Below the pieces are notes generated by a model that saw only the letters and a list, made by a program, of their open reading frames with translations, did not search any database and had not been told where the DNA came from. The position numbers and the translations under genes were made by a program. Below, one piece after another: positions 1 to 49,757 of a stretch of DNA of 64,000 bases. Source of the stretch: Eubacteriales bacterium. Lineage in GTDB: Bacteria; Bacillota; Clostridia; Christensenellales; Aristaeellaceae. The stretch spans positions 669-64,668 of the forward strand of contig JAVBPC010000076.1 in NCBI GenBank assembly GCA_031549905.1, in the 5' to 3' direction. The first letter of the stretch is position 1. Each line of letters begins with the position of its first letter.

Positions 1-8
1 AAACGCTA

Positions 9-5682: not shown

Positions 5683-8600
5683 ATGAAGCAGACGGTCATA
5701 GCAAGCATCCTTGCGGCGGCGCGGCAAACCCCCGGCAAAGCCGCTGTTGTGGCAGACGACCGCACCGTAACATACGCGGAGCTGTCAACGCAAACGCGCC
5801 GCGTGGCCTTCCAGCTGCAGGCGCAAGGCATTGGGCGGGGCGATATCGTCCCCATCTTTTTGGAAAGAGGCGTTGACGCCGTCGCCGCGATGCTGGGCGT
5901 TCTGTACGCCGGGGCGGCGTTTTGCAATGTGAGCACGGAATACCCGCCGGACCGTGTGGCGTTCATCTATCGGGATACGAATGCCAAGCTGCACATAGAC
6001 GCGGCATGGATGGCCGCGCTGGGCGAGCAGATGGCAGGCCAAGCGACCGCATCCGAAGCGGATGACACGGCGCTGGTCGTGTACACATCCGGCTCCACCG
6101 GCAACCCGAAGGGCGTGGCGTTATCGCACGCAACCATCTGCCAATCGGCACACAACATGATACTGGGGCGCACGGCGGAAGATATCTTCATGTCCATGGC
6201 GTCCTTTTCGTTTATTGCCGTGCTTGTGGATATCTTTTCGCCGCTGATGCTGGGCGCGACGGTGCATGTATTGAACGCGCAGCTGCGCACCGATGCGCGG
6301 CTGCTTGCCGATTATGTGAAGGAAAAGGGCATCACAACCGGGTTTGAGCCGCCGCAGTTTGCCGCCCGTTTTCTGGAGATTGCCGACGGCGCGCTGCGCG
6401 TGCTATTGGTCGGCAGCGAGCGCGTGCGCAACCTGTACAGCACCAGAACGCAGATCATCAATGTATACGGGGCCAGCGAAACCGCCGCCCTCGTGGCGTT
6501 TTTTTCGGTGGATAGGCCGTATGCCGATTCCACGCCCATCGGCTTTGCGCCCCCCGGCGTCACGCTGTACCTGCTGGATGATGACGGCAACAAGGTGCCG
6601 GCGGGGGAGACAGGCGAGATCTGCGTCGCGGGCCAGATTGCCTCCGGCTACCTGAACCTGCCGGAGCAGACTGCCGAGAAATTCATCCGGAACCCATACG
6701 CCACCAGCGAGCACGACGCCGTGCTGTACCGCACCGGCGACCTGGGGCGCTTTGGCGGGGACGGGGCGCTGATTTATGTTCAGCGCAAGGATTGGATGCT
6801 GAAAGTGAGCGGCTACCGCGTGGAGCCGGGCGAGATTGAGGCCGCTATCGTCAGCAGGTCAGACGTGAAACAGGCGGTTGTCAAGGGCTTTCAGAACGCA
6901 TCCGGCGAAACATCGCTGTACGCCGTATACACCGCCGATACCGCCATACCGCCGGATGCCGTGCTGGAGGCGATCCGCGGCTTCCTGCCGGACTACATGC
7001 TGCCATCCTACCTGGAGCAGATCCCCGCGATGCCGCTGAACATCAACGGCAAAATCGACCGCAAGAACATACTGCCCCCCGATTTCACGAAGCTGCAGCA
7101 GGCGTACGAGCCCCCGCAGGGCGACGCCGAAACCGCGCTGTGCGAAGCGTTTGCCAAGGTGCTGAAACTGCCGAAGATCGGCGCGATGGATGATTTCACC
7201 GCGCTTGGCGGGGACTCCATGGCGGCCGTCCGCCTGCAGGCTGCGCTGCCGCAGTACGCATTGGCGGCGGCGGATATCCTGTCGCTGCGCACCCCCCGAA
7301 AGCTTGCGGAGGTGCTGACGGCCCGCCGCCCGCTGACCAAAGCCGCGCCCATGGAAACCTATCCGCTGACGCATGCCGAAAAGCAGATGGCGGCGGAACA
7401 GAGCATGGACCCCGGATCGGTCCAGTACAACATCAACCTTGCGCAGACTCTGTCCGGGCAGCTTGATGTGGACCGCCTGACCGCTGCGATACAGGCGCTA
7501 ATCAACCGCCACGCCATCCTGCGGTCAGGCTATCGCATGGTGGGCGGCGAATACCGCCGGTTTGTGCGCGGGGACGCAAAAGTCATTCTGCCGCTTGAAA
7601 GCTGTGACGCCGAAAGCCTGCAAACCCGCATTGACGCGGCCAACAAGCCCTACGATCTGGAAAACGATCCGCTGTACCGCTTCACGCTGTACCGGCTTGC
7701 GCCTGACTTGCATGTGCTGCACATGGCGTTCCACCATATCATCATGGACGGGACCGCCGCGCCCGCGCTGCTTGCCGACCTGTGGGCGCTGTACGAAGGG
7801 AAAACGCCACCCGCGCCAGCCTTCGACTTTGCTGATTTTGCCGTGTGGCAGCAGGAAAACGGCGATGATGCGGCAGCGGAGGCATATTACGCTTCCCTCT
7901 TTGCGGGCGGGCTGCCGGAAAATGAGATGCCCACGCACCCGCTTCGCCCCGAAACGCTGCCCGTGGCCGATACGGACCTGTTTGCCGCGCTGCCTGCGCA
8001 CAGCCTGCAAAAGGCCGCCCGCAGGCTTGGCGTGACGGAATACGTGCTGATCACGGCGGCGCTGGGGCTGACGGTTGCCAAGTACTGCGGCAGCGAAGAT
8101 ATCATGCTGGGCACCGCGATGAACGGCCGCACGCAGCCTGAAACCGCCGACATGGTGGGCATGTTTGTCAGCACCGTGCCGCTCCGCTTCCGTTTTTCAG
8201 CGGAAAGCAGCGCGGCGGATGTGATCCGCGAAACCGCTGCCATGATCGCCCGCGCGCAGGCGCACCAGGGATACCCCTTCCCGCGCCTGGTGACGGAGTA
8301 TGCCCCAGACCGCAACCCCTCGCGCGGGCCACTGTTTGATGTGCTGCTCAACCATCTTAACAGTCTGCCGCGCTTTGAGCTGCCCGGGCTGAGCGTCTGC
8401 GACCGCCCCATCAAAAGGCAGGCGCTGGCGAATGATCTGGTCATGGAAACCACGCTGAACGGGGACGCGCTGGACATCAAGCTGAGCTATTCGCAAAGGC
8501 TGTACGATGACGGTATCGCGGCGGGCATCCTGGAGCAGTTCACCGCTATTTTACAAAGATTCGTGAAAGACGCAGAAATGCCGGTGCTGGATGCCGCCGA

Positions 8601-11600
8601 ACTGCCCGATGCCATGCGCAGGCGGATCATCGAAGACTTCCACGGCGAGCGCACCGATGAAAACCTGGGAAAAACGGTGGTTGACCTGTTCCGCGCCCAG
8701 GCGGAGCGCACGCCGGAAAATACCGCTGTGGTATCCGGCGAGGCAAGAATCACATACGCAAAACTTGATCGCATTACCGACAACATTGCCGCGCACCTTG
8801 CGCAGCAAGGCGTCTCGGCGGGGGAGTTTGTCGGGATTCTGGTGAACCGCTCCGAAAGGATGCCCATCTGTGCGCTCGGCGTGCTGAAAGCCCGCGCGGC
8901 GTATGTGCCGCTGGACCCCAGCTACCCGCCGGAGCGCCTGGAGTTCATGCTTGCCGATGCCGGCGTCTCCATTGTGCTGGTGGATGAAGGGCTGGAAAGC
9001 CTGATTCCCGGTTTCAATGGAAAATTACTTCTAACATCATCCATATCTACGCTCCCCGACGCCGTGCCCCCCGAAGCGCCGGGGCCGGATGGCACGTTCG
9101 TGCTGCTGTACACATCCGGCACCACGGGCCTGCCCAAGGGCGTGCGGCTGACGCACGCGAACCTGACGAATTTCTGCACCTGGTATCGGAACAAGCACGA
9201 AATCACAGAGCGGGACGGCTCCCTGGCGTACGCCAGCTTCGGCTTTGACGCCAACACGATGGATACCTACCCCGCGCTGATTTCGGGCGCAAGCGTGCAC
9301 ATCATTCCGGAAGAGATGCGCCTGGACCTGCCCGCGCTGGATGCCTACTGCGCCGCGAACCGCGTCACGGTCCTGTTCATGACAACACAGCTGGGCCGCC
9401 AGTTTGCGCAGATGAAGCGCAAAAGCCGCCCGCGCGCGCTAAGCATCGGCGGCGAGTCTCTTACCCCGCTATCTCCGCCGGATGACATCACATTCTACAA
9501 CGTGTACGGCCCCACGGAGTGCACGGTGCTGAGCACCTGGTACCGGATCGACAGGCTGTACGACCGCGTGCCGATTGGCTACCCGCTTTCCAACATGGCG
9601 ATCTATGTGCTGGATAAGCACGGCCGCCTCGCGCCCATCGGCGCGGCGGGCGAGCTTTGCATTGCCGGCCGCCAGGTCGCCGCCGGGTACCTGAACCGCC
9701 CGGAACTGACCGCCGAGAAGTTCACGAAGAACCCGTTTACCGATGAGGCGGACTACGCCCGCATCTACCACACAGGAGACGTGGTGCGCTACCTGCCCAG
9801 CGGTGCGATCGATTTTGTGGGCCGCCGCGATTTCCAGGTGAAGATCCGCGGTTTCCGTGTGGAGCTGACGGAAATAGAAGGCCGCATCCGAGAATATGCG
9901 GGCATCACGGACGCCGCCGTGGTCGCATTGGATGCGCCGGGCGGCGGCAAGTGCGCGGCCGCGTACATCGTTTCCGCCGCGCCCGTGGATGTTGCCGCGC
10001 TGCATGACTTCATCGAGGAAAAGCTGCCGCCGTACATGGTGCCTGCCGCCACGATGCAGATCGACCGGATTCCGCTGAACCCCAACGGCAAGATAGACAG
10101 GCGCAAGCTGCCCGCGCCGGTGTTCGGCGGCGGCGAGGCATCCGGCGCGGATATCAAGGCGCGCCCGCTCAACATCCTGGAAGAGAAGATCATGGCCGCC
10201 GTGCGCGATGTGCTGGGGCATGACCAGTTTGGCCCGGACAGCAACCTGCTCAGGGCTGGGCTTGCGTCGCTGTCGGCGATCAAGCTGATGGCGATGCTGG
10301 ATGAGGCGCTGGGCTGCGCGCCGTCTGTGCGCGATTTCATGCGCGAGCCCACGGTACTGGGCATCGAGAACCTGCTGCTGGAGCGCCTGCTGGCCGGAAA
10401 AGTGCCGGAGCAGACCGCGCCCGCTGTGCCCGCAACGCGCGAAAACTACCCGCTGTCGCACAACCAGATGGGCGTGTACCTGGACTGCATGAAAGCGCCC
10501 GATGCCATGAACTACAACATTCCGATATTCCTGGCGCTGCCCGGCGGCGTTGACGCGCGCCGCCTGCAAAGCGCGGTGCAGGCTGTGATTGACGTGCACC
10601 CCGCCCTTCGCGCGCGCCTTGTCAGGCACGGGGAAACCGCCCAGCAAACGCAGGGGAATGCCATAACGGTTATATTTGAGCAGATGACGGTGACGGAGTT
10701 TGCGGCGTACAAATCGGCCTTCATGCGCCCGTTCGATCTGTTCAAAGATTCGCTGTGCCGCGCGGCGGTGGTCGCTGCGCCGGATCAGGTGCACCTGCTG
10801 CTGGATTTCCATCACATCGTGTTTGACGGCGCGTCCGCCGACCTGTTCCTGCGCGCGGTCGGTGAAGCCTATGACGGAACCGCGCCGCAGGCCGAGCGCC
10901 TGAGCGCGTTCGACTGGGCGGCAGCGGACATTGAACAGGAAGGCACGCAGGCGTGGCAGGACGCGAAAGCGTACTTCGACGGCAAGCTGACCGACTTCGA
11001 ATCGGCATCGCAGCTGTCGCCGGATATGGGCTCGCAAAACAAAGAAGGGCTGCTGCAGGAGGCCGTGCGGACAGTGGACCGCGCCCAGGTGGAGGCGTTC
11101 TGCGCGAAGCACGGCGTCACCCCGGCGGGGCTGTTCGCGGCGGCGTCCGCGTATGCCGTCAGTCGCTGGGTAAACAGCCCCAAGGTGTATCTGGCCATGA
11201 TCAGCAGCGGCCGAGACGACCCGAGGCTGCGGAACACTGCGGGCATGTTCGTGCGCACGCTGCCGCTTGTCATCGGCAGGCAATCCGATCAGACGGTGCT
11301 GGAATACATTGAGTCCGCGCAGCGGGAGCTGACCGGCGCTATCGCCCACGAAAACTACCCGTTCACCCGCGTTGCCGCAGACTACGGCTATACGCCGCAC
11401 ATCATGTACGCCTGTGAGCTGGGCGTGCTGGAAGCATACCGCATCGGCGGCGAAACCGCCGTGATGTCGCCCCCCGGGCTGCAGAAGCCGAAATTCCCGC
11501 TGTCCATCCACATCGAAAACAGGGACGGCGGCATGGTGTTCGCCGTGCAGTATGACGACGGCAAGTACTCCGGGCAGATGATGGCGGCGTTTGCGGAAAC

Positions 11601-14600
11601 GCTTCAGCAGGCGCTGGAGAACATGATGGCGCGCCCGGATCGTCCGGCGTGCACCGTCTCGCTGATGTCAAAAGACCAGCGGGCGCTGATCGCAAAATTC
11701 AACGATACCTGCGATGTGCCGGAGGATACGCTCCACGGCATGTTTGAGGCGACGGCAGCCAAAAACCCCGACCGCGTCGCCCTGATCGCCTGCAATGAAA
11801 CGCTGACCTACGCCCAGCTGAACGCCGAAAGCAACAGGCTGGCGCACGGGTTGCTTGCGCGGGGGCTGCAGCCGGAGGATCGCGTAGCGCTGTTGCTGCG
11901 CCGCACCAGCCGCCCGCTGATCGCCATGCTTGCCGTGCTGAAAGCGGGCGGCGCGTACATCCCCCTTGACCCCGAATACCCGGAAGAGCGGGTGCGCTAC
12001 ATCGCAGAGGACAGCGCCGCGCGGTTCACCCTGACCGAAAACGAAGTGGATGCGTACCGCGAAGGCCAGCCCGCGCACAACCCTGGGCTTGCCGTGTCGC
12101 CCTGCCAGCTGGCGTACCTGATCTACACTTCCGGCTCCACCGGCAAGCCCAAGGGCGTCATGATCGAGCACAGGGGCATCGCAAACTATGTCAACGCCCA
12201 CCCGAAGAACATCCATGTGCACGCCTTGGCGACCGAAGCCAGCGTACTGCTGTCCACCACCACCATCGCGTTTGATATGTTCCTCAAGGAAAGCATGACC
12301 ATGCTGTGCAATGGCGGCACGCTGGTGTTTGCGGATGAGCAGTCCGCCCACGACCCCGTGCGCCTTGCCCAGATGTTTGCCGAAACCGGCGCGGACGCGT
12401 TCAACGCCACGCCTTCCGTCATGCTGGAATACACGTCTTACCCCCCGCTGCTGGATGCGATCCGCCGCTGCAAGGTCATCATGTGCGGCGCGGAAAAGTA
12501 CCCCGAAGCGCTGCTGAAACGCTTCAGCGGCTGCGGCGCGCAGCGGTTCAATACCTACGGCCCCACGGAGATTTCGGTTTCATCAAACGCGCAAAAGCTG
12601 GAAGAGGGCAAGCGCATCACGGTGGGCGCGCCGCTGCTGGGCGTGCGGGAGCAGGTGGTCGATACGGACGGCAACCCGCTGCCCCCGTTGGTGGTGGGCG
12701 AGCTGATCATCGGCGGGCGCGGCGTCGCCAGGGGCTACAACAACCTGCCCGAGCAGACCGCCGAGCGGTTCATCACCGTAGACGGCATTAGGTCGTACCG
12801 TACCGGCGATATGTCCCGCTGGACGCCGGGCGGCGAAATTGAAATTCTGGGCCGAAACGACGGACAGATCAAGCTGCGCGGCCTGCGCATCGAGATGGGC
12901 GAAATCGAAACCGCGCTTGCCGCTGTGGACGGCGTGAGAACCTGCGCGGTGGTGATTCGCAAACTGCAAGGCTCTGAGCACCTGTGCGCGTATTATATCG
13001 CGGATAGGCAAATCCCGGCGGGCGATGTGCGCGACGCGCTGAAACAGCGGCTTGCGCATTACATGGTGCCCACGGCGTACCTCCAGATAGCCGCCATGCC
13101 CAAGACCCCCAACGGCAAGAACGACCTGATGGCTCTGCCCGACCCGGAACTGCTGCGCAGCGGGCAGTATGTGGTCCCGCGCGGTGAAACGGAACAGAAG
13201 CTGTGCGCCATATTTGGCAAGGTGCTGAACCTGGATGCCGTGGGCGCGGAGGATAACTTCTTTGAGCTGGGCGGAAGCTCCCTGATGGTTACGCGCGTGG
13301 TGATCGAGGCGGAAAACGCGGGCCTTGCGGGTGCGGACGGCGCGAAGATTTCGTATGCGGATGTGTTCGCGCACCCGACCCCGCGCGATCTGGCCGCGCT
13401 GCTGAGCGGCGGCAGGCAGGAGCAGCCCGCCAAAGAAGAGGAAACCTACGACTACACCGCCATTCACGCCATGCTGGCCACGCAGGGCGGCATCCCCCCG
13501 CGGTTTGAAAAGCTATCCGGCACGGTGCTGCTGACCGGCGCCACGGGCTTCCTGGGCATCCACATGCTGCATGCGCTGGTGACCGGCGAGCACGCAGAAA
13601 CCGTGACAAAGGTATACTGCCTTGTCAGGAAAGGCCGGTTCCAGTCCGCGCAGCAAAGGCTGAAACACATGCTGTTCTATTATTTCGAGGACAGCTTTGA
13701 CAGTCTGTGGGATGACAAGCTTTTTGCCATCGACGGCGACATGACAAACGCGGAAACCATGGCGCGGATGCGCGAATACCCCGCGCAGACGGTGATCAAC
13801 TGCGCGGCGAACGTATCGCACTTTGCGCGCGACAGCGCCAGCTTTGATGTGAACGTGGCGGGCGTGCGGAACCTCATCGCGTACTGCCGCGATGTGAGGG
13901 CGCGGCTGATCCATGTATCCACCACCAGCGTCGGCGGGTTCTCCGTGGATGGCGTTCCGCCCAGGGATACAAAGCTGGATGAAACAATGCTGTTCTTCGG
14001 CCAGAACATGGAAAACCAGTATGTGCAAACCAAGTTCTTGGCCGAGCGTGAGATACTGGAAAGCTGCCTGGCGGGCCTTGACGCGAAGATCATGCGCGTG
14101 GGCAACCTGATGGCCAGGAACCGGGACGGTGAGTTCCAGATCAACACGAAGGGCAACAGCTTCCTGGGCAGGCTGCGCGCGTACGCCGCGGTTGGCTGCT
14201 TCCCGTACTCCGCCTATTCCATGCTGATGGAGCTTGCCCCCATCGACAGCACCGCAGAGGCGATCCTGAAGCTGTCCTGCACGCCGGCGCAGTGCCGCAT
14301 CTTCCACCCGTACAACAACCACTACCTGTTCATGGGCGATTTCATCAACCAGATGAATGAGGAAGGCGTGCCCATCCAGCTGGTGGAGGATGCGGAGTTT
14401 GATGCGGCGGTCTCCGTCGCGATGCAGGACCAGAGGCGCGCCGAAAGCCTGACCAGCATCATGGCGTACCGCAACATGGCCGGCGGAAAGGCTGCGGTTC
14501 CCATCGCCACCGTTTGCGAGCATACGGTGCAAACTCTGCTGCGTATGGGGTGGCACTGGCCGGAGACCGGCGTGGAATACCAGCGCAGCTTTGTGCGCTT

Positions 14601-14643
14601 CCTGGTGGGCATGGGCATAATCGGAGGTGACGACAATGTTTGA
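5683..14643 (+). CDS. Non-ribosomal peptide synthetase, three modules, A-T-C-A-T-C-A-T-R with C-terminal thioester reductase
   Basis: 2986 aa. Three adenylation cores are present (YTSGSTGNPKGV, YTSGTTGLPKGV, YTSGSTGKPKGV, each with YRTGD/YHTGD and GRxDxQxKxRG motifs). Three carrier domains follow (LGGDSMAA, AGLASLSAIKL, LGGSSLMV). Two condensation domains carry HHIIMDGTA and HHIVFDGAS. The C-terminus is a short-chain-dehydrogenase-type R domain (LLTGATGFLG ... YVQTKFLAE). RBS GGAAGGAAA sits 8 nt before ATG. Confidence 0.95.
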   Translation: MKQTVIASILAAARQTPGKAAVVADDRTVTYAELSTQTRRVAFQLQAQGIGRGDIVPIFLERGVDAVAAMLGVLYAGAAFCNVSTEYPPDRVAFIYRDTNAKLHIDAAWMAALGEQMAGQATASEADDTALVVYTSGSTGNPKGVALSHATICQSAHNMILGRTAEDIFMSMASFSFIAVLVDIFSPLMLGATVHVLNAQLRTDARLLADYVKEKGITTGFEPPQFAARFLEIADGALRVLLVGSERVRNLYSTRTQIINVYGASETAALVAFFSVDRPYADSTPIGFAPPGVTLYLLDDDGNKVPAGETGEICVAGQIASGYLNLPEQTAEKFIRNPYATSEHDAVLYRTGDLGRFGGDGALIYVQRKDWMLKVSGYRVEPGEIEAAIVSRSDVKQAVVKGFQNASGETSLYAVYTADTAIPPDAVLEAIRGFLPDYMLPSYLEQIPAMPLNINGKIDRKNILPPDFTKLQQAYEPPQGDAETALCEAFAKVLKLPKIGAMDDFTALGGDSMAAVRLQAALPQYALAAADILSLRTPRKLAEVLTARRPLTKAAPMETYPLTHAEKQMAAEQSMDPGSVQYNINLAQTLSGQLDVDRLTAAIQALINRHAILRSGYRMVGGEYRRFVRGDAKVILPLESCDAESLQTRIDAANKPYDLENDPLYRFTLYRLAPDLHVLHMAFHHIIMDGTAAPALLADLWALYEGKTPPAPAFDFADFAVWQQENGDDAAAEAYYASLFAGGLPENEMPTHPLRPETLPVADTDLFAALPAHSLQKAARRLGVTEYVLITAALGLTVAKYCGSEDIMLGTAMNGRTQPETADMVGMFVSTVPLRFRFSAESSAADVIRETAAMIARAQAHQGYPFPRLVTEYAPDRNPSRGPLFDVLLNHLNSLPRFELPGLSVCDRPIKRQALANDLVMETTLNGDALDIKLSYSQRLYDDGIAAGILEQFTAILQRFVKDAEMPVLDAAELPDAMRRRIIEDFHGERTDENLGKTVVDLFRAQAERTPENTAVVSGEARITYAKLDRITDNIAAHLAQQGVSAGEFVGILVNRSERMPICALGVLKARAAYVPLDPSYPPERLEFMLADAGVSIVLVDEGLESLIPGFNGKLLLTSSISTLPDAVPPEAPGPDGTFVLLYTSGTTGLPKGVRLTHANLTNFCTWYRNKHEITERDGSLAYASFGFDANTMDTYPALISGASVHIIPEEMRLDLPALDAYCAANRVTVLFMTTQLGRQFAQMKRKSRPRALSIGGESLTPLSPPDDITFYNVYGPTECTVLSTWYRIDRLYDRVPIGYPLSNMAIYVLDKHGRLAPIGAAGELCIAGRQVAAGYLNRPELTAEKFTKNPFTDEADYARIYHTGDVVRYLPSGAIDFVGRRDFQVKIRGFRVELTEIEGRIREYAGITDAAVVALDAPGGGKCAAAYIVSAAPVDVAALHDFIEEKLPPYMVPAATMQIDRIPLNPNGKIDRRKLPAPVFGGGEASGADIKARPLNILEEKIMAAVRDVLGHDQFGPDSNLLRAGLASLSAIKLMAMLDEALGCAPSVRDFMREPTVLGIENLLLERLLAGKVPEQTAPAVPATRENYPLSHNQMGVYLDCMKAPDAMNYNIPIFLALPGGVDARRLQSAVQAVIDVHPALRARLVRHGETAQQTQGNAITVIFEQMTVTEFAAYKSAFMRPFDLFKDSLCRAAVVAAPDQVHLLLDFHHIVFDGASADLFLRAVGEAYDGTAPQAERLSAFDWAAADIEQEGTQAWQDAKAYFDGKLTDFESASQLSPDMGSQNKEGLLQEAVRTVDRAQVEAFCAKHGVTPAGLFAAASAYAVSRWVNSPKVYLAMISSGRDDPRLRNTAGMFVRTLPLVIGRQSDQTVLEYIESAQRELTGAIAHENYPFTRVAADYGYTPHIMYACELGVLEAYRIGGETAVMSPPGLQKPKFPLSIHIENRDGGMVFAVQYDDGKYSGQMMAAFAETLQQALENMMARPDRPACTVSLMSKDQRALIAKFNDTCDVPEDTLHGMFEATAAKNPDRVALIACNETLTYAQLNAESNRLAHGLLARGLQPEDRVALLLRRTSRPLIAMLAVLKAGGAYIPLDPEYPEERVRYIAEDSAARFTLTENEVDAYREGQPAHNPGLAVSPCQLAYLIYTSGSTGKPKGVMIEHRGIANYVNAHPKNIHVHALATEASVLLSTTTIAFDMFLKESMTMLCNGGTLVFADEQSAHDPVRLAQMFAETGADAFNATPSVMLEYTSYPPLLDAIRRCKVIMCGAEKYPEALLKRFSGCGAQRFNTYGPTEISVSSNAQKLEEGKRITVGAPLLGVREQVVDTDGNPLPPLVVGELIIGGRGVARGYNNLPEQTAERFITVDGIRSYRTGDMSRWTPGGEIEILGRNDGQIKLRGLRIEMGEIETALAAVDGVRTCAVVIRKLQGSEHLCAYYIADRQIPAGDVRDALKQRLAHYMVPTAYLQIAAMPKTPNGKNDLMALPDPELLRSGQYVVPRGETEQKLCAIFGKVLNLDAVGAEDNFFELGGSSLMVTRVVIEAENAGLAGADGAKISYADVFAHPTPRDLAALLSGGRQEQPAKEEETYDYTAIHAMLATQGGIPPRFEKLSGTVLLTGATGFLGIHMLHALVTGEHAETVTKVYCLVRKGRFQSAQQRLKHMLFYYFEDSFDSLWDDKLFAIDGDMTNAETMARMREYPAQTVINCAANVSHFARDSASFDVNVAGVRNLIAYCRDVRARLIHVSTTSVGGFSVDGVPPRDTKLDETMLFFGQNMENQYVQTKFLAEREILESCLAGLDAKIMRVGNLMARNRDGEFQINTKGNSFLGRLRAYAAVGCFPYSAYSMLMELAPIDSTAEAILKLSCTPAQCRIFHPYNNHYLFMGDFINQMNEEGVPIQLVEDAEFDAAVSVAMQDQRRAESLTSIMAYRNMAGGKAAVPIATVCEHTVQTLLRMGWHWPETGVEYQRSFVRFLVGMGIIGGDDNV

Positions 14644-32561: not shown

Positions 32562-32595
32562 CAAACGCCAGACGGGCATGCCGACTGGCGTTTGT
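32562..32595. terminator. Hairpin between convergent SPFH and LRR genes (possible bidirectional terminator)
   Basis: CAAACGCCAG-N14-CTGGCGTTTG 10-bp stem. Flanking T-runs are weak. Confidence 0.35.
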
Positions 32596-32600: not shown

Positions 32601-34622
32601 CTATTCGCGATAATCGCTTACGATCTTCACATCCGGCAGATTTACCTTGAGCAGCGCGATCTCTTCAAGGGTCAGCGCATCGTTTTCCGACAGATCAACC
32701 CATTCAAGCGCGGTCAGCGCGTACAGCGGCGACAGGTCGGAAACCAGGCAATCCCGGAGGCTGAGGGTTTGCAGGTTCACCATGCCGGCAAGCGGGGTTA
32801 GGTCACTCACCTGCGCGTGATCCAGATAGAGCGTATCCAGCAGCGTCAGCTTCGCAATCGGCGTGATATCGGAAAGATCGAAGTTGTAGGAGGCATCCAG
32901 GCATGTGAGCGCCGTAAGTCCCGCGATCGGCGAAAGGGCGTCAATTTCGCAGTTGCGGATATCAAGGTAGGTCAGCCCCGTCAGCGCGGAAAACGGCTCA
33001 AGGCTTTCAAGGCATATATCGGCCACTTCCAGGTAGCGCAGCGCGGGCATTTCAAGCAGCGGCGAGAAGTCCCGCAGCCCTATATTGTTTGATACGCCCA
33101 GCGATTTCAGGCGCGGAAGGCCGGCAAGCGGCGTCAGGTCTGTCACATAATTGAGCCACAGGTCCAGCGACTCCAAGGTTACAAGGCCGGAAAGCGGTGT
33201 AAGGTCCGTGATATCGTTGTCGCTCAGATCAAGCCATGTAAGCGCCGTAAGCCCAGCAAGCGGCTCAATTCCTTCATCGCCTAGCATGCAGTACGCCAGG
33301 TCCAGTTCGTCAACGTTCAGCGGGACCGCCATGGTTTCATCCCCGATCTGGATCGATACCGTTTCGCTATCGACAAAACCGCCGGGCGTGCCTTCCCATT
33401 TTGCGCTGCCATCCAATGGCACGGTGGTAAACTGCTGTTCCCCCGTCCACCAATCGGTGACCGAGTAAAACACCGCCGCGCCTTCCCCGACGCCGTAGGA
33501 GCCCAGATACTCCGCGGGGCCGGCATCCAGCCTGTACAGCGGCGTGCCGTCATACGCGTGCAGCACAAGCTCCGCGCGCTCAAGATCATGCGGTTCAAAG
33601 GAGGCGTCGTGATACCACACGGCCAGCCCGTAGGGCGTGGCGAAATACAGGTCGGAATCGATGGAAAGCGGCGCGTGTCCGCCCTTTTCGGCATCAAATC
33701 CGTATAGCGCGCCGAACAGGATGCGCGGCCAATCCATATCCGAAAAGGGCAGCGTAAACCCGTCATCCAGGTTTTGGTAGACGATGTGCGGCCCCTGTGA
33801 AACCAGCCCGCGCACGCCGCATTCGGTCAGCTTTTCAAGGCCGGTGCCATCCAGGTTTACGCGGTAAAGCCTGGGGTACGAAAGATCAAGCATTTCGTTC
33901 TCATCGTCGCTCACGCAGCTTACAAAGGGTACATCGGCATAGGTTTTGACATCGTTCAGGTTCGCGAAATAGATCGCGCCGTCGTGGTATACAAACTCCG
34001 TTGCGGCGACGCCTTCTATTTCCTGTACGTCGCCGCCATCCATTTCGCAGGTGTACAGCGTGCCGGTCGGCCCGGAAAACAGCAGGCGGCCGCTGTCCGC
34101 CATGCGCAGGATCGGCCCCGCGTACGGCGCACGGTCCGCTGAAACGCGCGGCTCATCCGGCACGCCCAGCCACATGGTTTCCATATAGTCTTCCCCAAAG
34201 AAGCGCACGCCGACGTCTTCCTCTTCTCCCCCAAAGCCCGCGCCGCTGATCAGGTACGCCCAGTCATCGCCATCGACAATCAGGTAATAGGGGGGCGTGT
34301 CCTCGTAATCTTCCCACTCATTATCCCATACCGCGTTGTCATACCAGGACCATCCGGTAGCGCATTCGACGATCATCCAGGGGTCAAGCGGAGATACGCA
34401 CACCGCGCCGCGCCCGGTAAGCGCCAGCGAAGCGCCCAAAATATACGAGCTGGGGATGCCCTCCCCTTCCAGCGGCTGCCCCTCGCCAAGCCCTTGCGGG
34501 GTTTGCAGCCTGGAAATGCGCGGATTCCCCGCGGCGGGCGTTGCTTCCTGCGCAAAACCCTGGCAGGTGGCCAGCAGCAAAAAGGCGGCCAGGGCAATGC
34601 AAGTCATCTTTCTCAAACGCAC
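32601..34622 (-). CDS. Secreted leucine-rich-repeat (internalin-like) protein with N-terminal DUF5050-like domain
   Basis: GTG start at 34622 (RBS AAGGAGG) gives the signal peptide MRLRKMTCIALAAFLLLATCQGFAQEA. The C-terminal about 250 aa are 22-residue LRRs (LxxLxxLDLSxNxITDLTPLAGL...). The N-terminal domain is paralogous to 37514-38692. Confidence 0.7.
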   Translation of the reverse strand: MRLRKMTCIALAAFLLLATCQGFAQEATPAAGNPRISRLQTPQGLGEGQPLEGEGIPSSYILGASLALTGRGAVCVSPLDPWMIVECATGWSWYDNAVWDNEWEDYEDTPPYYLIVDGDDWAYLISGAGFGGEEEDVGVRFFGEDYMETMWLGVPDEPRVSADRAPYAGPILRMADSGRLLFSGPTGTLYTCEMDGGDVQEIEGVAATEFVYHDGAIYFANLNDVKTYADVPFVSCVSDDENEMLDLSYPRLYRVNLDGTGLEKLTECGVRGLVSQGPHIVYQNLDDGFTLPFSDMDWPRILFGALYGFDAEKGGHAPLSIDSDLYFATPYGLAVWYHDASFEPHDLERAELVLHAYDGTPLYRLDAGPAEYLGSYGVGEGAAVFYSVTDWWTGEQQFTTVPLDGSAKWEGTPGGFVDSETVSIQIGDETMAVPLNVDELDLAYCMLGDEGIEPLAGLTALTWLDLSDNDITDLTPLSGLVTLESLDLWLNYVTDLTPLAGLPRLKSLGVSNNIGLRDFSPLLEMPALRYLEVADICLESLEPFSALTGLTYLDIRNCEIDALSPIAGLTALTCLDASYNFDLSDITPIAKLTLLDTLYLDHAQVSDLTPLAGMVNLQTLSLRDCLVSDLSPLYALTALEWVDLSENDALTLEEIALLKVNLPDVKIVSDYRE

Positions 34623-34635: not shown

Positions 34636-35583
34636 TTACAGACCTGGGTCAGGCAGCGCTCTTTGCAGGGCATCAAACCCGGTGATTTCATACAGCCCCA
34701 TCCAGGCATCCAGCAGCATGCCATCCTGGAATTCAAAGCCCGAGATGACCGTGCCATCCGCCAATGTAAAATAGTAGTTCAGGTAGTCGTCGGTATGGCC
34801 GTTTTTCACGTTTTCTTCCAGTACGGAGATATTGCAAAGCGCGTCAAACACTGCCTGAATCGTCGCGGGGTCCGTGCTGGTGACGGGTTCTCCGCTCCCT
34901 TCGCCGTCATGGCGCACGGATACGGAAACCGGAAAGTTTGTTTTGATGTTATCGACAAACCATGAAACCGTCAGGTCATCAAGGAACCAGAACAGCGGCA
35001 CGCCCCCTTCCACGACAGAAAAGGTATACACCGCGTTGTATGAATCGCCCAGGTTGATCACCCGCGTGCCGGGAATGATGGGGTCCTCAAACATGCGGGC
35101 GCGAATGTTTTTCAGGGAGAAATCCTCCACCGTGCCGTCGCTGCGCACCGCGTATTCGCCGATCAGCCCGGAGAACCCGGCGTACGGTACATCCCCGTAG
35201 TTCAGCGCGTCGTCTATCGCGGAAAAGGAGACCACGCACGCCACATCTTTGTAGTAATCCTGCCAGATTCGGCGCTGCACGGCCCCCGCGTTCTTGGGCT
35301 CATCGCCGATCAGGTACACGGTGGTCTGCACAATTTGCAGGTAGCAAATGCGCGACAGGGGGCCCGCGTCAGGGTCATCCGGCCCGCGCGAACAGGCATC
35401 CAGCAGGCTTTGCAGCGCAAGGTCGGCATACTGGGTGACCAGCGCCCGGGCCTGCGCATCGAGGGTGTCAATCGCCTCGCCGAACGCGCCCGGCAGCACA
35501 TGCCCGGATTCAGCCGCCCGCGCCGGGGCGCACAGGGCAAGCGCCAGCGCGCAAAGAACCAAAAGGGGACTCGATTTTCTCAT
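34636..35583 (-). CDS. Secreted hypothetical protein
   Basis: Start at MRKSSPLLVLCALALALCAPARA (RBS AGGAGG), a signal peptide with AXA site. No motif recognised. Confidence 0.5.
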   Translation of the reverse strand: MRKSSPLLVLCALALALCAPARAAESGHVLPGAFGEAIDTLDAQARALVTQYADLALQSLLDACSRGPDDPDAGPLSRICYLQIVQTTVYLIGDEPKNAGAVQRRIWQDYYKDVACVVSFSAIDDALNYGDVPYAGFSGLIGEYAVRSDGTVEDFSLKNIRARMFEDPIIPGTRVINLGDSYNAVYTFSVVEGGVPLFWFLDDLTVSWFVDNIKTNFPVSVSVRHDGEGSGEPVTSTDPATIQAVFDALCNISVLEENVKNGHTDDYLNYYFTLADGTVISGFEFQDGMLLDAWMGLYEITGFDALQRALPDPGL

Positions 35584-35612: not shown

Positions 35613-37478
35613 TCATGCCGAATATACATCCCAGCGAATTTGCGTGATCATGCCGCCGCGTATCTCGAAACTGACCCAGCACGCCTGCTGATAGCTGTTG
35701 GAAACGTTATAGTCCACGGTGACAAGCTCTCCGGCGATGAATGTTGCGCTGCCAAACCGCTGAAACGCGCCGTCGCTTTCTTGATACAGATAGATTTCGT
35801 CGTTTTGCACATCAAGTGCTTCCCCGGCGCGGTCGTTTTGGAATGCGGCCAGCAGCGTTTCCAGGGAATCGCCGACACGGATGCCGCGCGGCCCGGCGAG
35901 CGCATCGGTATCGATGCGGATTGTGATGCCGGAAAAGGTGTCCCCCGCCTTGGCAAGCGCCACATCGCCAAACGGGTAGGTTAGCGCGACGGTGTAATCG
36001 TCCTCATCCACGCGAATCGGCTGGCCAAAGTTTGCGGTGACGACCTCCAGGCCGGGAAAGCGGAAATCCTGTTCGCCCGCGTTATCGGTGGCAATCTGAA
36101 AGTGCGGAAAGTACTGGAAATCTGAAAGCGCAAGCGGCTGCGCGCTTTGCGTCGCTTCTCCGGCCGGCGCACCGGGGTCAAGCACCACGCCGACAAATAG
36201 CGGGATTCCCTCAGCCGCGATACAGAAGAAGAACGGCCGGTTCACGATGAATCGGATCGGCTCCTCTTCCTTCTGGCCCGGCGCGGCCATCGCTTCGCCA
36301 AACAGCTGCGTGAGCGCTGCGGCCTCGATGCCGGTTTTATCCACCGTGATGTGGGTATCCTGCCGCGCGGCGGTAAGGTACACCGGCCCATCCGCAAGGC
36401 CGGAAAAGTCGGCGGCCGCTGGCGAAAAGGCCGCCCGGACGCCAAGCGCGTACAATGCCGTTTCCAGACCAAACGCCGTATCAAAGGCGAACTGGGGGAA
36501 CTCCGCGTGCAGCTTCCGCAAATAGCCGGTACCGGGACTGATAAGCTCCTGCGCACCCCCTTGCCGTGTCAGCAGCGGCAGAAGGCCGGTATCCTCATCT
36601 GGCAGCACAATCGTCATGTCAAGGCCGCCTTCCAGCGGCAGGCGTGCCCATGCGTATCCATCCCCAAGGCCGTATGGCGCGGTAAGATCGGTGCGCAGGA
36701 AATCGGTTTCGATCTCACGCCCGCTTAAAAGGGTGAATGTGCGGCGTGCGGAAAAGACCGGCTTTAGCCACGGCGTTTTGAGGTACACCGTGTTAAAGAT
36801 CGCAAGCCGCTGATCTTCCTTTGTGGTGATCGGCGGGTTCAGCAGTCCGCGCGTTTTTTCCGCCACCCAGTGCGACATGTGGCCGGCGGTCGCCGCGTCG
36901 CCAAAGTCCGCGCGGTACAGCTCGCCGTACTGCGCCGCCGCGGTGTCAAGGAACGCCGCGTTGTAACTGTAGCCCGCGTGCAGCCACACGGCGTGGGCGA
37001 TGATCAGCGCGCAGTCCTGATCACCCAGGTGGATGTTGCGGTATAGCGCGCCAGCCATTCCCGCCGGGTTCGCACCGGCCGCCACCGCATCCGTCAGGCC
37101 AAGCGCGGCGTACAGTTCCGCCTGCGCCGCACCGCGTGTGCCGCCTGCCGCCAGCAGCAGCGCGTAGTACAGGCTAAGCGGCGAGTAGCACAGGTTCTTG
37201 CTGGGCGTGCCAAGCAGCGCCGCCGTAGATTCGCCTGTGAAGCGCATGATCCCGGCGAGCAGCTCGCCCGCGATCGGATTCTCCGCCTTTTGCGCGCGAA
37301 ACGCGATGTAATCGCCGGTTGAGGCGGCCACCGGCGCATCCGGCAGGAATACCGCTTCCGGCCCGGCGGCGAAGGCGCTGCTGACGCCGCAAAGCATCAG
37401 CGCCGGCAGCGCTGCGGAGGAAGCCAGCAGGCACACGGCCATCGCCAGCGGCAAAAGGCTTCTTTTCATGGTTTTCAT
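35613..37478 (-). CDS. Secreted serpin (serine protease inhibitor) with about 185-aa C-terminal extension domain
   Basis: Signal peptide MKTMKRSLLPLAMAVCLLASSAAL. Serpin signatures are NTVYLKTPWLKPF, the hinge/RCL HITVDKTGIEAAALTQ, and the C-terminal FIVNRPFFFCI. An additional non-serpin domain follows the serpin core. RBS GGAGG. Confidence 0.85.
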   Translation of the reverse strand: MKTMKRSLLPLAMAVCLLASSAALPALMLCGVSSAFAAGPEAVFLPDAPVAASTGDYIAFRAQKAENPIAGELLAGIMRFTGESTAALLGTPSKNLCYSPLSLYYALLLAAGGTRGAAQAELYAALGLTDAVAAGANPAGMAGALYRNIHLGDQDCALIIAHAVWLHAGYSYNAAFLDTAAAQYGELYRADFGDAATAGHMSHWVAEKTRGLLNPPITTKEDQRLAIFNTVYLKTPWLKPVFSARRTFTLLSGREIETDFLRTDLTAPYGLGDGYAWARLPLEGGLDMTIVLPDEDTGLLPLLTRQGGAQELISPGTGYLRKLHAEFPQFAFDTAFGLETALYALGVRAAFSPAAADFSGLADGPVYLTAARQDTHITVDKTGIEAAALTQLFGEAMAAPGQKEEEPIRFIVNRPFFFCIAAEGIPLFVGVVLDPGAPAGEATQSAQPLALSDFQYFPHFQIATDNAGEQDFRFPGLEVVTANFGQPIRVDEDDYTVALTYPFGDVALAKAGDTFSGITIRIDTDALAGPRGIRVGDSLETLLAAFQNDRAGEALDVQNDEIYLYQESDGAFQRFGSATFIAGELVTVDYNVSNSYQQACWVSFEIRGGMITQIRWDVYSA

Positions 37479-37513: not shown

Positions 37514-38692
37514 TTACCAGTTCGTATCGCTGCCATCCAGCGGGATCGCGAAGAACTCGAACACACCTTCCTCGTAGTCGTGCGAAATCACCCAGATGCC
37601 GTCATTCGTCACAAAATACGGCAGTGCGTACCAGTACAGAGAACCCGCGTCCAGCCGGTACAGCGGCTTTCCATTTTGGTAGTCATGCAGCACCAGCGCA
37701 AAGCCCGGGCAGTTTTCCTCATCCGTGATTTCGGGCAGCCAGGCCGCCAGCCCATAAGGCGTGGGCATATACAGCGGGCTGTCAATCCCCAGCGTGCGGA
37801 GCGCGCCGGTCTGGGCATTGTAGCACCATACCGTGCCCAGCAGGTCTTCTTCTTCCGATCCGGGCAGCACGAACAGGTCATCCATGTTCTGGTACAGGAT
37901 GTACGGCCCCTTAGATACAAGCCCGCGCACGCCGCAATCGGTAAGCCTTTCCACATGCGTGCCATCCAGGCGCATGCGGTACAGGCGCGGGTACGCGGCG
38001 TCGATGGTTGCGTCGTCTTCCTCGATGTACACATCCAGGTACCGCGCCAGGTCGCTCAGGTTTGTAAAATAGATGTTTTGGTTGTGGTACACGAACTGTT
38101 CCGCGGGGATATCCGATACCCGGCGCGGTGCCGATCCGTCGGCGTTTACGATGGTAATGTGCCTTTCGCCGTCCAGCACCAGCAGCCGCCCGTCGCTAAG
38201 GCGAAGCAGGGGGCCGACGGCCGGTTCGCGGCCAAGCTCCCCCAGACCCAGCGGGATGCGGGTTGCCGCGCCGTCCGTACCTACCACCACCAGCTCGATC
38301 GCCTGCCCGTATTCGGGTCCGCCAACCATGTAGGCGACGCCGTATTGATCCGCGATAACGCCGGATACATACGTTTCCTCCAGATATTCGGCCTGGGTGC
38401 GCAGCGCGCCGTTTTCCTGAACCAGCACGCGCACCCCGTGGGTTGATCCCGAAACGGCGGCAAACGCCAGCGTATCCTCCCATATGACCAGATCGGCCCC
38501 GGCGGAATAATCGGCAGGCACGGCCTCGGGCAGCGAATGAAACCCGCTGGGGATGTCAATCCGCGTAAAAGCGACCAACCGCGGAGTGATGCCGTTCCCT
38601 TCCGCGCCCCCAAGCGCAGCAGGGGAGAGACAAAGCGCGGCCAGCAGCAGAACCAGCACTGTGCGGCAGAGGGTGTTTGCCGTTCGCTTCAT
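37514..38692 (-). CDS. Secreted DUF5050-like repeat protein (paralog of N-domain of LRR protein)
   Basis: Signal peptide MKRTANTLCRTVLVLLLAALCLSPAALG (RBS AAGGAGG). Block YPRLYRMRLDGTHVERLTDCGVRGLVSKGPYILYQNMDD is about 75% identical to the corresponding block in 32601-34622. Confidence 0.6.
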   Translation of the reverse strand: MKRTANTLCRTVLVLLLAALCLSPAALGGAEGNGITPRLVAFTRIDIPSGFHSLPEAVPADYSAGADLVIWEDTLAFAAVSGSTHGVRVLVQENGALRTQAEYLEETYVSGVIADQYGVAYMVGGPEYGQAIELVVVGTDGAATRIPLGLGELGREPAVGPLLRLSDGRLLVLDGERHITIVNADGSAPRRVSDIPAEQFVYHNQNIYFTNLSDLARYLDVYIEEDDATIDAAYPRLYRMRLDGTHVERLTDCGVRGLVSKGPYILYQNMDDLFVLPGSEEEDLLGTVWCYNAQTGALRTLGIDSPLYMPTPYGLAAWLPEITDEENCPGFALVLHDYQNGKPLYRLDAGSLYWYALPYFVTNDGIWVISHDYEEGVFEFFAIPLDGSDTNW

Positions 38693-38763: not shown

Positions 38764-38817
38764 GCTGCTAAAGTGCACAGGTCATTATGAAAAAGACCCT
38801 GTGAAAACACACAGGGT
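38764..38817 (-). repeat. 55-bp repeated intergenic element copy A (terminator hairpin plus conserved upstream box)
   Basis: TAAAGTGCACAGGT ... ACCCTGTG-aaaaca-CACAGGGT. On the minus strand the hairpin is followed by CTTTTTC. It is nearly identical to copy B at 42952-43006. Confidence 0.6.
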
Positions 38818-38863
38818 CGCCGTTTTGCGGAAAAATAATGCATCCGCCACCATGCGTAGCGGG

Positions 38864-42951: not shown

Positions 42952-43006
42952 TAGCTGGTAAAGTGCACAGGTATAGGCAAAATGACCCTGTGAAAACACA
43001 CAGGGT
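42952..43006 (-). repeat. 55-bp repeated intergenic element copy B
   Basis: Same box and ACCCTGTG-aaaaca-CACAGGGT hairpin as copy A. It lies downstream of the membrane LuxR gene and upstream of the small LuxR gene. Confidence 0.6.
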
Positions 43007-43042: not shown

Positions 43043-44473
43043 TTATGTGGTAAGGGTGAAACGGTCGCTAAACTTGGCGAAAAGCTCAGTGCGGCTGCCC
43101 ACGCCCATTTTGCGGTACAGGCCGTGGCAGTGAAAGTTGACGGTGGATTGCGAAATGGATAGCTCCGCACCGATTTGGCGCATGGTTTTGCCGCAGAGAA
43201 GCAGCGCGCAAACCTCGCGCTCCCTGGGCGTGAGGTCGGGGTACTCAACCTGGCTTGCCTGTTCTACGGTTTCGCGCACCAGATCGATGTCAATCTGGCG
43301 GAATGCATCCGCCCATTCCATCGTGAACAGGTGGCGCTGCAATATCGGCGCTACAAGCACCGTAATCTGCAGGCAAATCGCCATCGCAGCCAGCGAAAGC
43401 ACCAGCGGGGTTTGCAGCAGCGCATCCAGATCAAACTGGAAAACCAGCACCGGAAGCAGCGTCAGCAGCGCCTCAAGGCCGCAAAACCACCGGAAGAACG
43501 CAATGTGCCGCGCTTTTTTGCCGATGCCCAGCACCATGTACATCGTGGCGGCCATGCCGAATGTTTCCCCGGCGGATATCAGTCCCTGGGCCATGGAATG
43601 CGCGGCGTATGTGCGCCCGAACGCGAAAAGCACCCCCACGGTGGTGGCCGCCAGGAACAGGTTCCACACATGCCAACTGCCGTGGCGCAGCCATATGTGC
43701 GCGGCCAGTATCAATGCGGCCCCCACAAGCGCCCCCACCCCGCATGCCATCAGGTTGGTCATCAGCGTATTGTAGGTAAGCCCCGCCAGCGTCGAGGTAA
43801 AGAATTCATACAGGGCCACCAGCACGAAAACCGTGTAGGTTCCGGCTTGCAGGCGCGGCGGGGATGCATCCCCATCCTCAGTGCCCCCCAGTCCCGCTTC
43901 CGCCAGCCCTTCCCCGCCGATATGGTACAGCACAAACACCAGCGCCAGCGCGAAAAGGGCGGCGTTGGCGTACACGATGTCATAATCGAGCGCATAGGAA
44001 CCCAGGCGCTGAAACACAGGCCTGAGCATCATGCTCAGGGCGTAATGCAGCGAATGCAGCAGCAGGCCGGCCAGCCTTTCCGCGTTGTTCAGCCGGTACA
44101 TCATCACATACACGGCAACCATGTAGCAGAAACCCAGCGCCGCATCAAAAATCAGGCAAAAGAAGATTTCGTAGGCCGGCGGCGCGAAGTACATCAGCCC
44201 TACGGCCGCAAGCGCAATGCATGCGCACAGCCGCGTCAGGTGCAGCGAAGGCTTGCGCAGCAAAAACGCGCCCAACATGGGCGCGCAAAATGCAAAGCTT
44301 TGAAGCGTGACGGAATCCAGGCCCATCCATTCAAAATCACGCGCGGCATACATCAGATCAAATGTGCACATCACCAACGGAAACAAAAGAAACAAAGCAA
44401 TATGATCCCTGCGGATATGCCGTGTGGATAGCGCCGGGCCGCCCAGCCGCTTTACAAACGCCTCGCGTAGCAT
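43043..44473 (-). CDS. Membrane-embedded LuxR-family one-component regulator (about 10 TM sensor domain + C-terminal GerE HTH)
   Basis: 476 aa. About 400 aa of polytopic membrane domain is followed by LTPREREVCALLLCGKTMRQIGAELSISQSTVNFHCHGLYRKMGV. Confidence 0.7.
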   Translation of the reverse strand: MLREAFVKRLGGPALSTRHIRRDHIALFLLFPLVMCTFDLMYAARDFEWMGLDSVTLQSFAFCAPMLGAFLLRKPSLHLTRLCACIALAAVGLMYFAPPAYEIFFCLIFDAALGFCYMVAVYVMMYRLNNAERLAGLLLHSLHYALSMMLRPVFQRLGSYALDYDIVYANAALFALALVFVLYHIGGEGLAEAGLGGTEDGDASPPRLQAGTYTVFVLVALYEFFTSTLAGLTYNTLMTNLMACGVGALVGAALILAAHIWLRHGSWHVWNLFLAATTVGVLFAFGRTYAAHSMAQGLISAGETFGMAATMYMVLGIGKKARHIAFFRWFCGLEALLTLLPVLVFQFDLDALLQTPLVLSLAAMAICLQITVLVAPILQRHLFTMEWADAFRQIDIDLVRETVEQASQVEYPDLTPREREVCALLLCGKTMRQIGAELSISQSTVNFHCHGLYRKMGVGSRTELFAKFSDRFTLTT

Positions 44474-48915: not shown

Positions 48916-48920
48916 CTCGT

Positions 48921-49757
48921 TTACCCTTTCACGCCTGCCGTGGCAATACCTTCCACAAAATGCTTCTGCCCCGCCAGGAACAGAATGAACACGGGCACGA
49001 TCGCACTGGTCGCGGCGGCCATGGTCAGGTTGTGCAGCTTGGATTCATCCTGCATGTACCAGCGGATGGCCTGCGCCACGGTGTACTTGGCCGGCTTGGT
49101 TAGGAAGATCAGTGGCGACAGGTACTCATTCCACGAGCCGATGAACGCCAAAATGATCAGCGACACCATCGCCGCCTTGGTCAGCGGCAGCATGATCTGC
49201 GCGAAGATGCGCGGATGGCCCGCCCCGTCGATCTTTGCTGCCTCCATCAGGTCGTTTGGCAGGCTCATGAAGAACTGGCGCAGCATGAAGATCGCCGTCG
49301 CGCCGAACCACGCGGGCAGGATCACCGCCCACAGGCTGTTGTACAGCCCGATCGTTTTGAACAGCATAAACCGGGGGATGATCGTCACCTGCCCGGGGAC
49401 CATCATCGATGATAAGAACAGCAGGAAAATGAAGCCCTTGCCGGTAAAGTTGATCTTGGCGAACGCGTACGCGGCGATGGATGCCACCGCAAGGTCGCCG
49501 ATGATGCTGAAGAATACGATAAAAAAGGAGTTAAAGTACGCGCCGAGCATCGATACCTCGCCCGATACCCAGATGGTCTTGTAGTTCTGCCACTGCCAAA
49601 CCTGCGGCAGCCATTTGAACGGGCGCGAGAACACCTCCGGCGCGGTTTTCAAAGAGGATAGAATCATCCAGATCAGCGGCAGCACGAACAGCAGCGACAG
49701 GGCGGCCATCACCGCCGTTTTGATGAGAATGCCAAGCTTTCCTTGCCCTGGTTTCAT
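48921..49757 (-). CDS. Carbohydrate ABC transporter permease (MalG/UgpE-like)
   Basis: 278 aa, 6 TM, with a BPD_transp_1 EAA loop (LMEAAKIDGAG). Confidence 0.8.
   Translation of the reverse strand: MKPGQGKLGILIKTAVMAALSLLFVLPLIWMILSSLKTAPEVFSRPFKWLPQVWQWQNYKTIWVSGEVSMLGAYFNSFFIVFFSIIGDLAVASIAAYAFAKINFTGKGFIFLLFLSSMMVPGQVTIIPRFMLFKTIGLYNSLWAVILPAWFGATAIFMLRQFFMSLPNDLMEAAKIDGAGHPRIFAQIMLPLTKAAMVSLIILAFIGSWNEYLSPLIFLTKPAKYTVAQAIRWYMQDESKLHNLTMAAATSAIVPVFILFLAGQKHFVEGIATAGVKG

Follow-up and report, generated by a model that had tools for sequence, protein, structure and literature searches.

A clostridial serpin gene carrying a rare, unannotated C-terminal domain among genes for secreted proteins

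The DNA analysed here (the window) is a 64,000-nucleotide stretch of an Eubacteriales bacterium (assembly GCA_031549905.1, contig JAVBPC010000076.1, positions 669 to 64,668), and the gene in question lies at 35613..37478 on its minus strand. In its product, a complete serpin stands between an N-terminal signal peptide and a beta-rich tail domain (termed X below) that folds separately and belongs to a rare and unannotated family. An earlier interpretation made from the letters only (the sequence-only reading) had described a secreted serpin with an extra C-terminal domain; the N-terminal signal and a tail of 186 residues were likewise read here. The tail, then called an unassigned domain of about 185 residues, corresponds to residues 436-621 and had no match in Pfam or NCBIfam. 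The features of the gene are listed below in window coordinates.

35613..37478, minus strand: serpin-plus-tail gene, ATG start, 621 residues, coordinates including the stop codon (from the open reading frame (ORF) list and the Pfam Serpin match)
37368..37478, minus strand: export signal, approximately residues 1-37 (MKTMKRS, a long hydrophobic stretch, and SSAFA/AG), read directly from the sequence
36174..37286, minus strand: serpin fold, approximately residues 65-435, helix A beginning before the Pfam match (residues 91-435)
36258..36338, minus strand: hinge and reactive-centre loop, P17 Lys381 to P10' Pro407, placed by the family alignment and the alpha-1-antitrypsin alignment
36135..36173, minus strand: linker GAPAGEATQSAQP, residues 436-448, 13 residues rich in Pro, Ala, and Gln, no embedded signal peptide
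35616..36134, minus strand: tail domain X, residues 449-621, beta-rich, signature GPRGIRVGDS..LLAAFQND

The serpin and its family

A ribosome-binding site (GGAGG) was read approximately 7 nt upstream of the ATG. The identical protein was recorded once, in an NCBI assembly on a 72-kb contig (cluster size, one). A degenerate lipobox-like motif (LMLC30) was also read within the N-terminal export signal, and the protein may be exported with cleavage either at AFA/AG or at this motif. By our own reading of their sequences, several serpin relatives have a lipobox-like L-x-[GA]-C motif or a membrane anchor at the N-terminus, and tethering to the surface may therefore be frequent in the family. As for the relatives P0008, P0010, P0011, and P0012, a cytoplasmic segment (…LFDAITNLPDPMVEEA…) and a membrane anchor after it take the place of a signal peptide; these four would be membrane-tethered extracellular serpins.

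At the sequence level, the serpin identity was demonstrated with Pfam, in which PF00079 (Serpin) matched residues 91-435 (E 8.5e-55; 186.9 bits, cutoff 27) over profile positions 18-370 of 370. No other Pfam family was found at E<=1 on the 621-residue protein, and no NCBIfam model matched it. A search of PDB sequences matched 177 serpin sequences (E 1e-24 to 1e-12); the top matches (E 1e-24 to 1e-19) were headed by arthropod serpins, with tengpin and miropin near the top (approximately 1e-19 to 1e-20). Pairwise alignment with human alpha-1-antitrypsin, the landmark residues of which were checked against its numbering, covered 321 residues with 28% identity and placed the landmarks N186, W194, S53, S56, and P391 at N229, W237, S99, S102, and P435, respectively. 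The RPF motif after the loop is R414-P415-F416, P415 being the counterpart of P369 of alpha-1-antitrypsin. The near-full profile coverage and the conserved landmarks bear out the earlier claim that the serpin core is complete. Among the motifs quoted in its favour, GIEAAALT (residues 383-390) and FIVNRPFFFCI (residues 410-420) are exact, and the third was off by one residue: the actual sequence is NTVYLKTPWLKPVF (…LKPVF), not …KPF.

In the hinge, P15 is Gly383 and P12-P10 are Ala386-Ala387-Ala388, and the inserting part contains neither charge nor proline; it is thus compatible with inhibition, as had been supposed. Counting from P15 Gly383, P1 is Met397 (codon, 36288-36290) and P1' is Ala398, and the same register was obtained independently from the alpha-1-antitrypsin alignment (G344, M358, and S359 to G383, M397, and A398, respectively). 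The Met-Ala pair of the sequence-only reading was therefore reproduced in two ways and is still tentative. Note that in the siropins of the gut Clostridia species Eubacterium siraeum, cleavage took place at other loop bonds than the predicted one (PMC5127057); thus, Met397-Ala398 is given as a prediction only. The C-side of the loop was also found to be longer than usual, in agreement with the previous description: the Pro of NRPF lies 18 residues after P1 vs 11 in alpha-1-antitrypsin and, by hand count, 14 in most family members, so that the P' side is approximately four residues longer here. In antithrombin, the distance from P1 to this Pro is 14. The extra residues belong, in the family alignment, to an insertion common to this serpin and its two closest relatives.

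Relatives were collected by several searches. A word-index search with the whole protein gave 36 relatives, none of which covered more than 70% of the query, and a metagenome scan with the family alignment recovered at least 478 from assemblies of gut, fermentation, and bioreactor origin; every metagenome match stopped by query residue 451. A reference-genome scan with the whole protein found no relative. The serpin core thus is, judged by its sequence, that of a common Clostridia family. When reading frames were measured in 82 loci, the median extension past the serpin core was 2 residues; an extension of at least 100 residues was present in 6 loci, of which two represent one and the same fusion (P0003, see below) and four contain an embedded lipoprotein signal peptide. 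Because the matches end by residue 451 and the median extension is 2, the serpin core is regarded as ordinary and the fusion to X as unique; no X-type C-terminal domain was found in any of the metagenome or database serpin relatives searched. As for the independent metagenome contigs L069, L074, L079, and L082, the serpin frame continues for 279 residues without a stop, into what resembles the lipoprotein signal peptide of the next gene (…MKR…LLLFAGC…); this may represent a read-through fusion in frame or, alternatively, a membrane anchor at the C-terminus.

The tail domain X and the fusion junction

When 1.84 billion representative proteins were searched exhaustively with the tail by HMMER, 35 matched at E<=1e-3, with the query's own protein ranked first; a word-index search using only the tail returned nothing, not even the identical protein. 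The remaining HMMER matches fell into three groups: free-standing secreted proteins of 205-230 residues (best, P0037; 46% identity, E 8e-36), proteins of approximately 350-410 residues that matched in two separate stretches, consistent with tandem copies, and a fusion to DUF6273. The family signature was F..DF.Y...F ... GPRG(I/L)RVGDS..(V/L)LAAF.N ... I.W. No Pfam match was found over the tail domain in the query or in 10 homologues. The genome scan was performed with a narrower alignment, the first tail alignment being too divergent, and located the domain in only two reference genomes, both of which are 'Eubacteriales bacterium EPI_MAG' assemblies (MAG: metagenome-assembled genome); the neighbouring genes were uninformative. 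In L007 (an Eubacteriales MAG), two tail-domain genes lie in tandem (5531-6157 and 6178-6948). From this pair and the many two-stretch members, the tail family seems to be duplication-prone.

The structure of the tail was predicted with AlphaFold2 from an 11-sequence alignment (pLDDT (predicted local distance difference test), 88.7; pTM (predicted template modelling score), 0.86) and contains two short helices and nine strands; by this model, the tail is a real, independently folding module. The structural matches were as follows, each with its two reported values.

SAV1118 accessory domain (4h0a): 8.0, 114
4ifa accessory domain: 7.9, 105
YjgB / DUF4309: 7.1, 109
YfeY: 6.8, 107

The best compact matches are accessory domains of secreted Firmicutes proteins, with scores that are all low and equally given by generic NTF2-like folds. 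Foldseek against the PDB gave no significant match to the tail model, and a profile search of PDB sequences with the tail returned nothing; in these searches and in Pfam, no sequence-profile relationship was found between the tail and YjgB (DUF4309), YfeY, or the accessory domains of the SCP proteins SAV1118 and 4ifa. As these domains are themselves without known function, the resemblance assigns none to the tail. Four candidate relationships were rejected. A PDZ-like similarity of the tail (E 0.26) was attributed to chance, since the model was not PDZ-like and the profile search was empty; a BamE-like match of one tail homologue (E 0.1) was not significant; P0044, considered as a second inhibitor-tail fusion, had an I42 match below the Pfam cutoff (E 0.016) and a profile-comparison probability of 0.3%, and was not relied on; and homology of X to module Z (described below) had an hhalign probability of 5.7%.

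At the junction, the linker, modelled with low pLDDT at the beginning of the tail model, leads directly into the stretch of the domain that, in the free-standing homologues, comes after the signal peptide. A clean linker into the mature domain points to a genuine gene fusion and not to a lost stop codon.

Neighbouring genes, the partner protein, and the peptide synthetase

Four genes on the same strand, in the order DUF5050-like, serpin, partner, and leucine-rich repeat (LRR)/DUF5050-like, are separated by gaps of approximately 30 bases. The features outside the serpin gene are as follows.

37514..38692, minus strand: upstream gene, a secreted protein of 392 residues with a below-threshold Pfam DUF5050 (beta-propeller-type) match (23.7 bits, cutoff 27)
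34636..35583, minus strand: partner gene, a secreted protein of 315 residues, likely start ATG 35583 after an AGGAGG ribosome-binding site
34639..35016, minus strand: module Z, C-terminal part of the partner (approximately residues 190-315), ending ...LPDPGL
32601..34607, minus strand: last gene, a secreted LRR protein with a weak DUF5050-like region, likely start ATG 34607 (Met51 of the mechanical ORF)
38795..38818, minus strand: terminator-like hairpin upstream of the unit, between it and a DUF3298 gene (consensus scan only)
32565..32579, minus strand: weak terminator-like site after the LRR gene (consensus scan only)
43043..44473, minus strand: GerE/LuxR-type regulator at the island edge (Pfam GerE, E 3.5e-15)
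5683..14643, plus strand: nonribosomal peptide synthetase (NRPS), 2986 residues, A-T-C-A-T-C-A-T-reductase

Farther upstream of the unit, more secreted proteins (DUF3298 and tetratricopeptide repeat (TPR)/DUF5067) and the GerE/LuxR protein are encoded; this protein possibly regulates the secreted-protein island. GerE-type genes were also found beside serpin relatives and beside orthologues of the partner. The contigs of the two closest serpin relatives encode GerE and LRR/DUF5050 proteins (37-44% identical to those of the window), and orthologues of the genes at 37514..38692 and 32601..34607 were found next to the serpin relatives in L001 and L003. From the gene spacing and the terminator scans, we infer that the four genes may be co-transcribed and that their products would act together outside the cell. 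The four unit proteins matched no PADLOC defence-system model, and Rfam had no match within the window. The two DUF5050-like genes share YFxNLxDxxxY…YPRLYRxxLDGTxxExLTxCGVRGLVSxGPxIxYQNxDD and are apparent paralogues. Near-identical terminator-like hairpins (ACCCTGTGTGTTTTCACAGGGT) were observed at 38795-38818 and 42985-43006 (minus strand), after two different island genes; the pair may be a small repeated element.

The partner had no Pfam match, and its AlphaFold2 model had a pLDDT of 83. It was found in three relations to serpins: adjacent here, fused in the serpin homologue P0003, the C-terminal extension of which is 53% identical to the last approximately 120 residues of the partner (E 6e-37), and clustered with the tail-less serpin P0002, where a full-length orthologue (51% identity over 262 residues) is located 5 kb away. 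Orthologues of the partner with no nearby serpin also exist, in similar TPR/LRR/GerE gene islands. In the partner homologue search, module Z proved highly conserved, with 61-69% identity to the C-termini of varied secreted proteins. Three Z-bearing proteins of other Clostridia, P0090-92, matched Pfam Inhibitor_I42 (E 6.9e-18, 1.4e-14, and 8.1e-15), and P0090 (from a Clostridia MAG) is annotated in NCBI as 'protease inhibitor I42 family protein'. Fused to a serpin and to I42 proteins, Z thus accompanies two unrelated inhibitor classes. In P0089-P0101, Z comprises approximately 125 residues (…PVSVSVRHDGEASG...GHTDDYLNYYFE...FQDGMLLD...ITGFDALQ.ALPDPG) with no Pfam match, and from its sequence it looks like an undescribed shuffled module.

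The presence of a reductase-terminated NRPS in the window, pointed out in the sequence-only reading, was supported by Pfam with three AMP-binding, two Condensation, and three PP-binding domains and NAD_binding_4 at residues 2617-2861 of 2986. The NRPS gene is followed by genes for a MatE exporter and a phosphopantetheinyl transferase. A peptide aldehyde is a plausible product by analogy; a terminal reductase domain can also yield an alcohol or a cyclised product. Between the NRPS and the serpin gene are an Opp-type peptide ATP-binding cassette (ABC) transporter, another ABC ATPase, two SPFH proteins, a radical-SAM protein, a WYL regulator, and RtcB.

Elsewhere in the window, positions 1-5000 have a G+C content of approximately 0.45 vs approximately 0.60 in the remainder; immediately before the NRPS, this segment contains genes for a CDP-glycerol glycerophosphotransferase and an asparagine-synthase-like protein, and it may be horizontally acquired. 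The ORF after the NRPS (14627-16390, plus strand) had a MatE match and a C-terminal HATPase_c_2 (anti-sigma kinase-like) match, and may represent two genes merged by the mechanical ORF call. A carbohydrate-use locus (45524-63217, minus strand) contains three paralogous PF12831 FAD-oxidoreductase genes, an FGGY kinase, a sugar-binding protein, a PQQ-type beta-propeller protein, and a sialate O-acetylesterase-family gene, which hints at host-glycan foraging.

Interpretation and comparison with known systems

We consider it reasonably likely that the protein is an exported, probably inhibitory serpin with a binding or targeting module, functionally similar to the dockerin-bearing serpins. A serine protease would cut the loop at Met397-Ala398 or at a bond close to it; the hinge (Gly383, Ile384, and Ala386-388) would then insert in sheet A and trap the enzyme, as in a classical suicide inhibitor. 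The sequence makes an inhibitory activity probable, and the trapped enzyme would probably be a serine protease preferring Met or small hydrophobic residues; from the chemistry of the loop, an elastase-, chymotrypsin-, or subtilisin-like enzyme is the suggested target. For the tail, the role proposed is that of a non-inhibitory binding module, which would most likely place or hold the serpin on a partner protein or the cell surface, as a dockerin does. Several points weigh against this account. The fusion of X to a serpin is known from one sequence on one MAG contig; co-transcription is based on gene spacing and consensus terminator scans alone; and no candidate target protease gene or peptidase family was found among the window ORFs scanned with Pfam. 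The insertion on the P' side, together with the off-register cleavage of the siropins, leaves the scissile bond uncertain. P14 is Ile384, the inhibitory consensus being Thr/Ser; P17 is Lys381 (codon, 36336-36338), Glu being present in 11 of the 13 relatives and in alpha-1-antitrypsin; and the K290-equivalent salt-bridge position is Gln329 (codon, 36492-36494), Lys or Arg being present in 11 of 13. The pairing of Glu with Lys or Arg at these two positions is kept in 11 of the 13 relatives. P17 is the site of the alpha-1-antitrypsin Z variant (E342K), and judging from the sequence, the combination of Lys at P17 and Gln329 could alter folding or loop insertion.

The loss of this salt bridge, the Ile at P14, and the lengthened P' side would also suit a serpin that is non-inhibitory (a binding protein, a chaperone, or of the substrate type) and the real function of which resides in the tail. 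We regard this as rather unlikely, because P15 Gly and the Ala run at P12-P10 are intact in a hinge free of charge and proline, and because P14 is Ile, Val, or Ala in 13 of 13 aligned family members and is thus a family trait. Even-numbered hinge residues turn into the core upon loop insertion, and a hydrophobic P14 should therefore be tolerated; moreover, the length constraint for inhibition applies in serpins to the P17-P1 side, which is canonical in length here. A multi-headed inhibitor, in which the tail or the partner would be a second inhibitor or ligand-binding domain, would be in keeping with the association of Z with two unrelated inhibitor classes and with the sub-threshold I42 match of the tail-family member P0044. 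However, the structural scores are low and common to generic NTF2-like folds, the profile comparison of P0044 with I42 failed, and no sequence match to any inhibitor family was obtained, so that this explanation is quite improbable. The fusion might also be an artefact, in which a serpin gene and a separate tail gene were joined by an assembly or sequencing error in the MAG: the fusion is a singleton, the tail homologues are otherwise mostly free-standing, and the same sample yielded both P0002, the closest serpin without a tail, and P0037, the closest free-standing homologue of the tail. We see only a very slight chance of this, because the Pro/Ala/Gln linker of 13 residues leads straight to the mature part of the domain, the junction contains no intergenic remnant, start codon, or signal peptide, unlike the four other serpin read-through loci with their embedded lipoprotein signal peptide, and the two halves share one reading frame and each has homologues.

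The sequence-only reading had further taken the serpin and the NRPS as paired strategies, that is, as a coordinated anti-protease adaptation to a protease-rich gut or inflammatory niche. Both genes are indeed within 64 kb, the NRPS has the A-T-C-A-T-C-A-T-reductase organization with the exporter and the transferase, and the sialate O-acetylesterase-family gene hints at host-glycan use; NRPSs of this type from gut Clostridia reportedly make protease-inhibiting peptide aldehydes (Guo et al., Cell, 2017). Nevertheless, a distance of 21 kb and at least 12 unrelated genes separate the two, which are encoded on opposite strands, and the linkage is not conserved: the contigs of the two closest serpin relatives contain no NRPS within the stretches that they cover, and a weak adenylation-like match was found in only 1 of 83 serpin loci. 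A large gene in L001, beside P0003, was considered as an NRPS and proved to encode an RHS/CBM protein. The gut or inflammatory niche was not upheld either, since relatives occur in gut, fermenter, and bioreactor metagenomes alike. The coupling was therefore rejected, a coordinated adaptation being very unlikely, and the NRPS appears to be an unrelated neighbour. The conserved association of the serpin is that with the adjacent secreted-protein genes, which had been overlooked; in this respect, the analysis removes a tempting, unsupported story.

Research on bacterial serpins concerns their role as modulators of host and microbial proteolysis, with inflammatory bowel disease as one example, and to our knowledge, almost all of those described are single-domain proteins. 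If X and Z are targeting or docking devices, they would explain where the inhibitors act and would provide handles for engineering surface-displayed inhibitors. A broader proposal, which we hold to be doubtful, is that uncultured Eubacteriales would possess a modular extracellular inhibitor display, in which X and Z would dock serpins and I42 inhibitors onto surface LRR and beta-propeller proteins under LuxR-type control.

Returning to the exported, probably inhibitory serpin with a binding module, three kinds of known systems are comparable. Siropins, gut serpins of the Oscillospiraceae type that inhibit neutrophil elastase and proteinase 3 (PMC5127057), tengpin, and miropin have, like this protein, a single serpin domain and a small-residue hinge, and are exported or surface-tethered; this protein differs from them in its C-terminal domain of 186 residues, its Lys at P17, and its longer P' side. 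The I42 (chagasin-family) inhibitors such as P0090 are secreted and carry the same Z module as the partner (61-69% identity), whereas they are cysteine-protease inhibitors and not serpins, and they carry Z themselves, whereas in the window Z is located on a separate protein beside the serpin. A functional counterpart would be the dockerin-bearing serpins, namely the modular PinA serpin of C. thermocellum (cited in PMC8201313) and that of Ruminococcus flavefaciens, in which signal-dockerin-serpin and signal-LRR-dockerin proteins were described (PMC2930009). In these, a non-catalytic module attached to the serpin brings it into an extracellular assembly, as would be the case here. They differ in that no dockerin is present in our protein (Pfam, E<=1) and that X and Z are unannotated, with a putative docking role; in addition, the LRR proteins of R. 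flavefaciens bear the same docking module as its serpin, whereas the LRR proteins here are neighbours in the putative operon. Among modular bacterial serpins, the fusion to an uncharacterised secreted domain and the sharing of accessory modules with I42 inhibitors are new.

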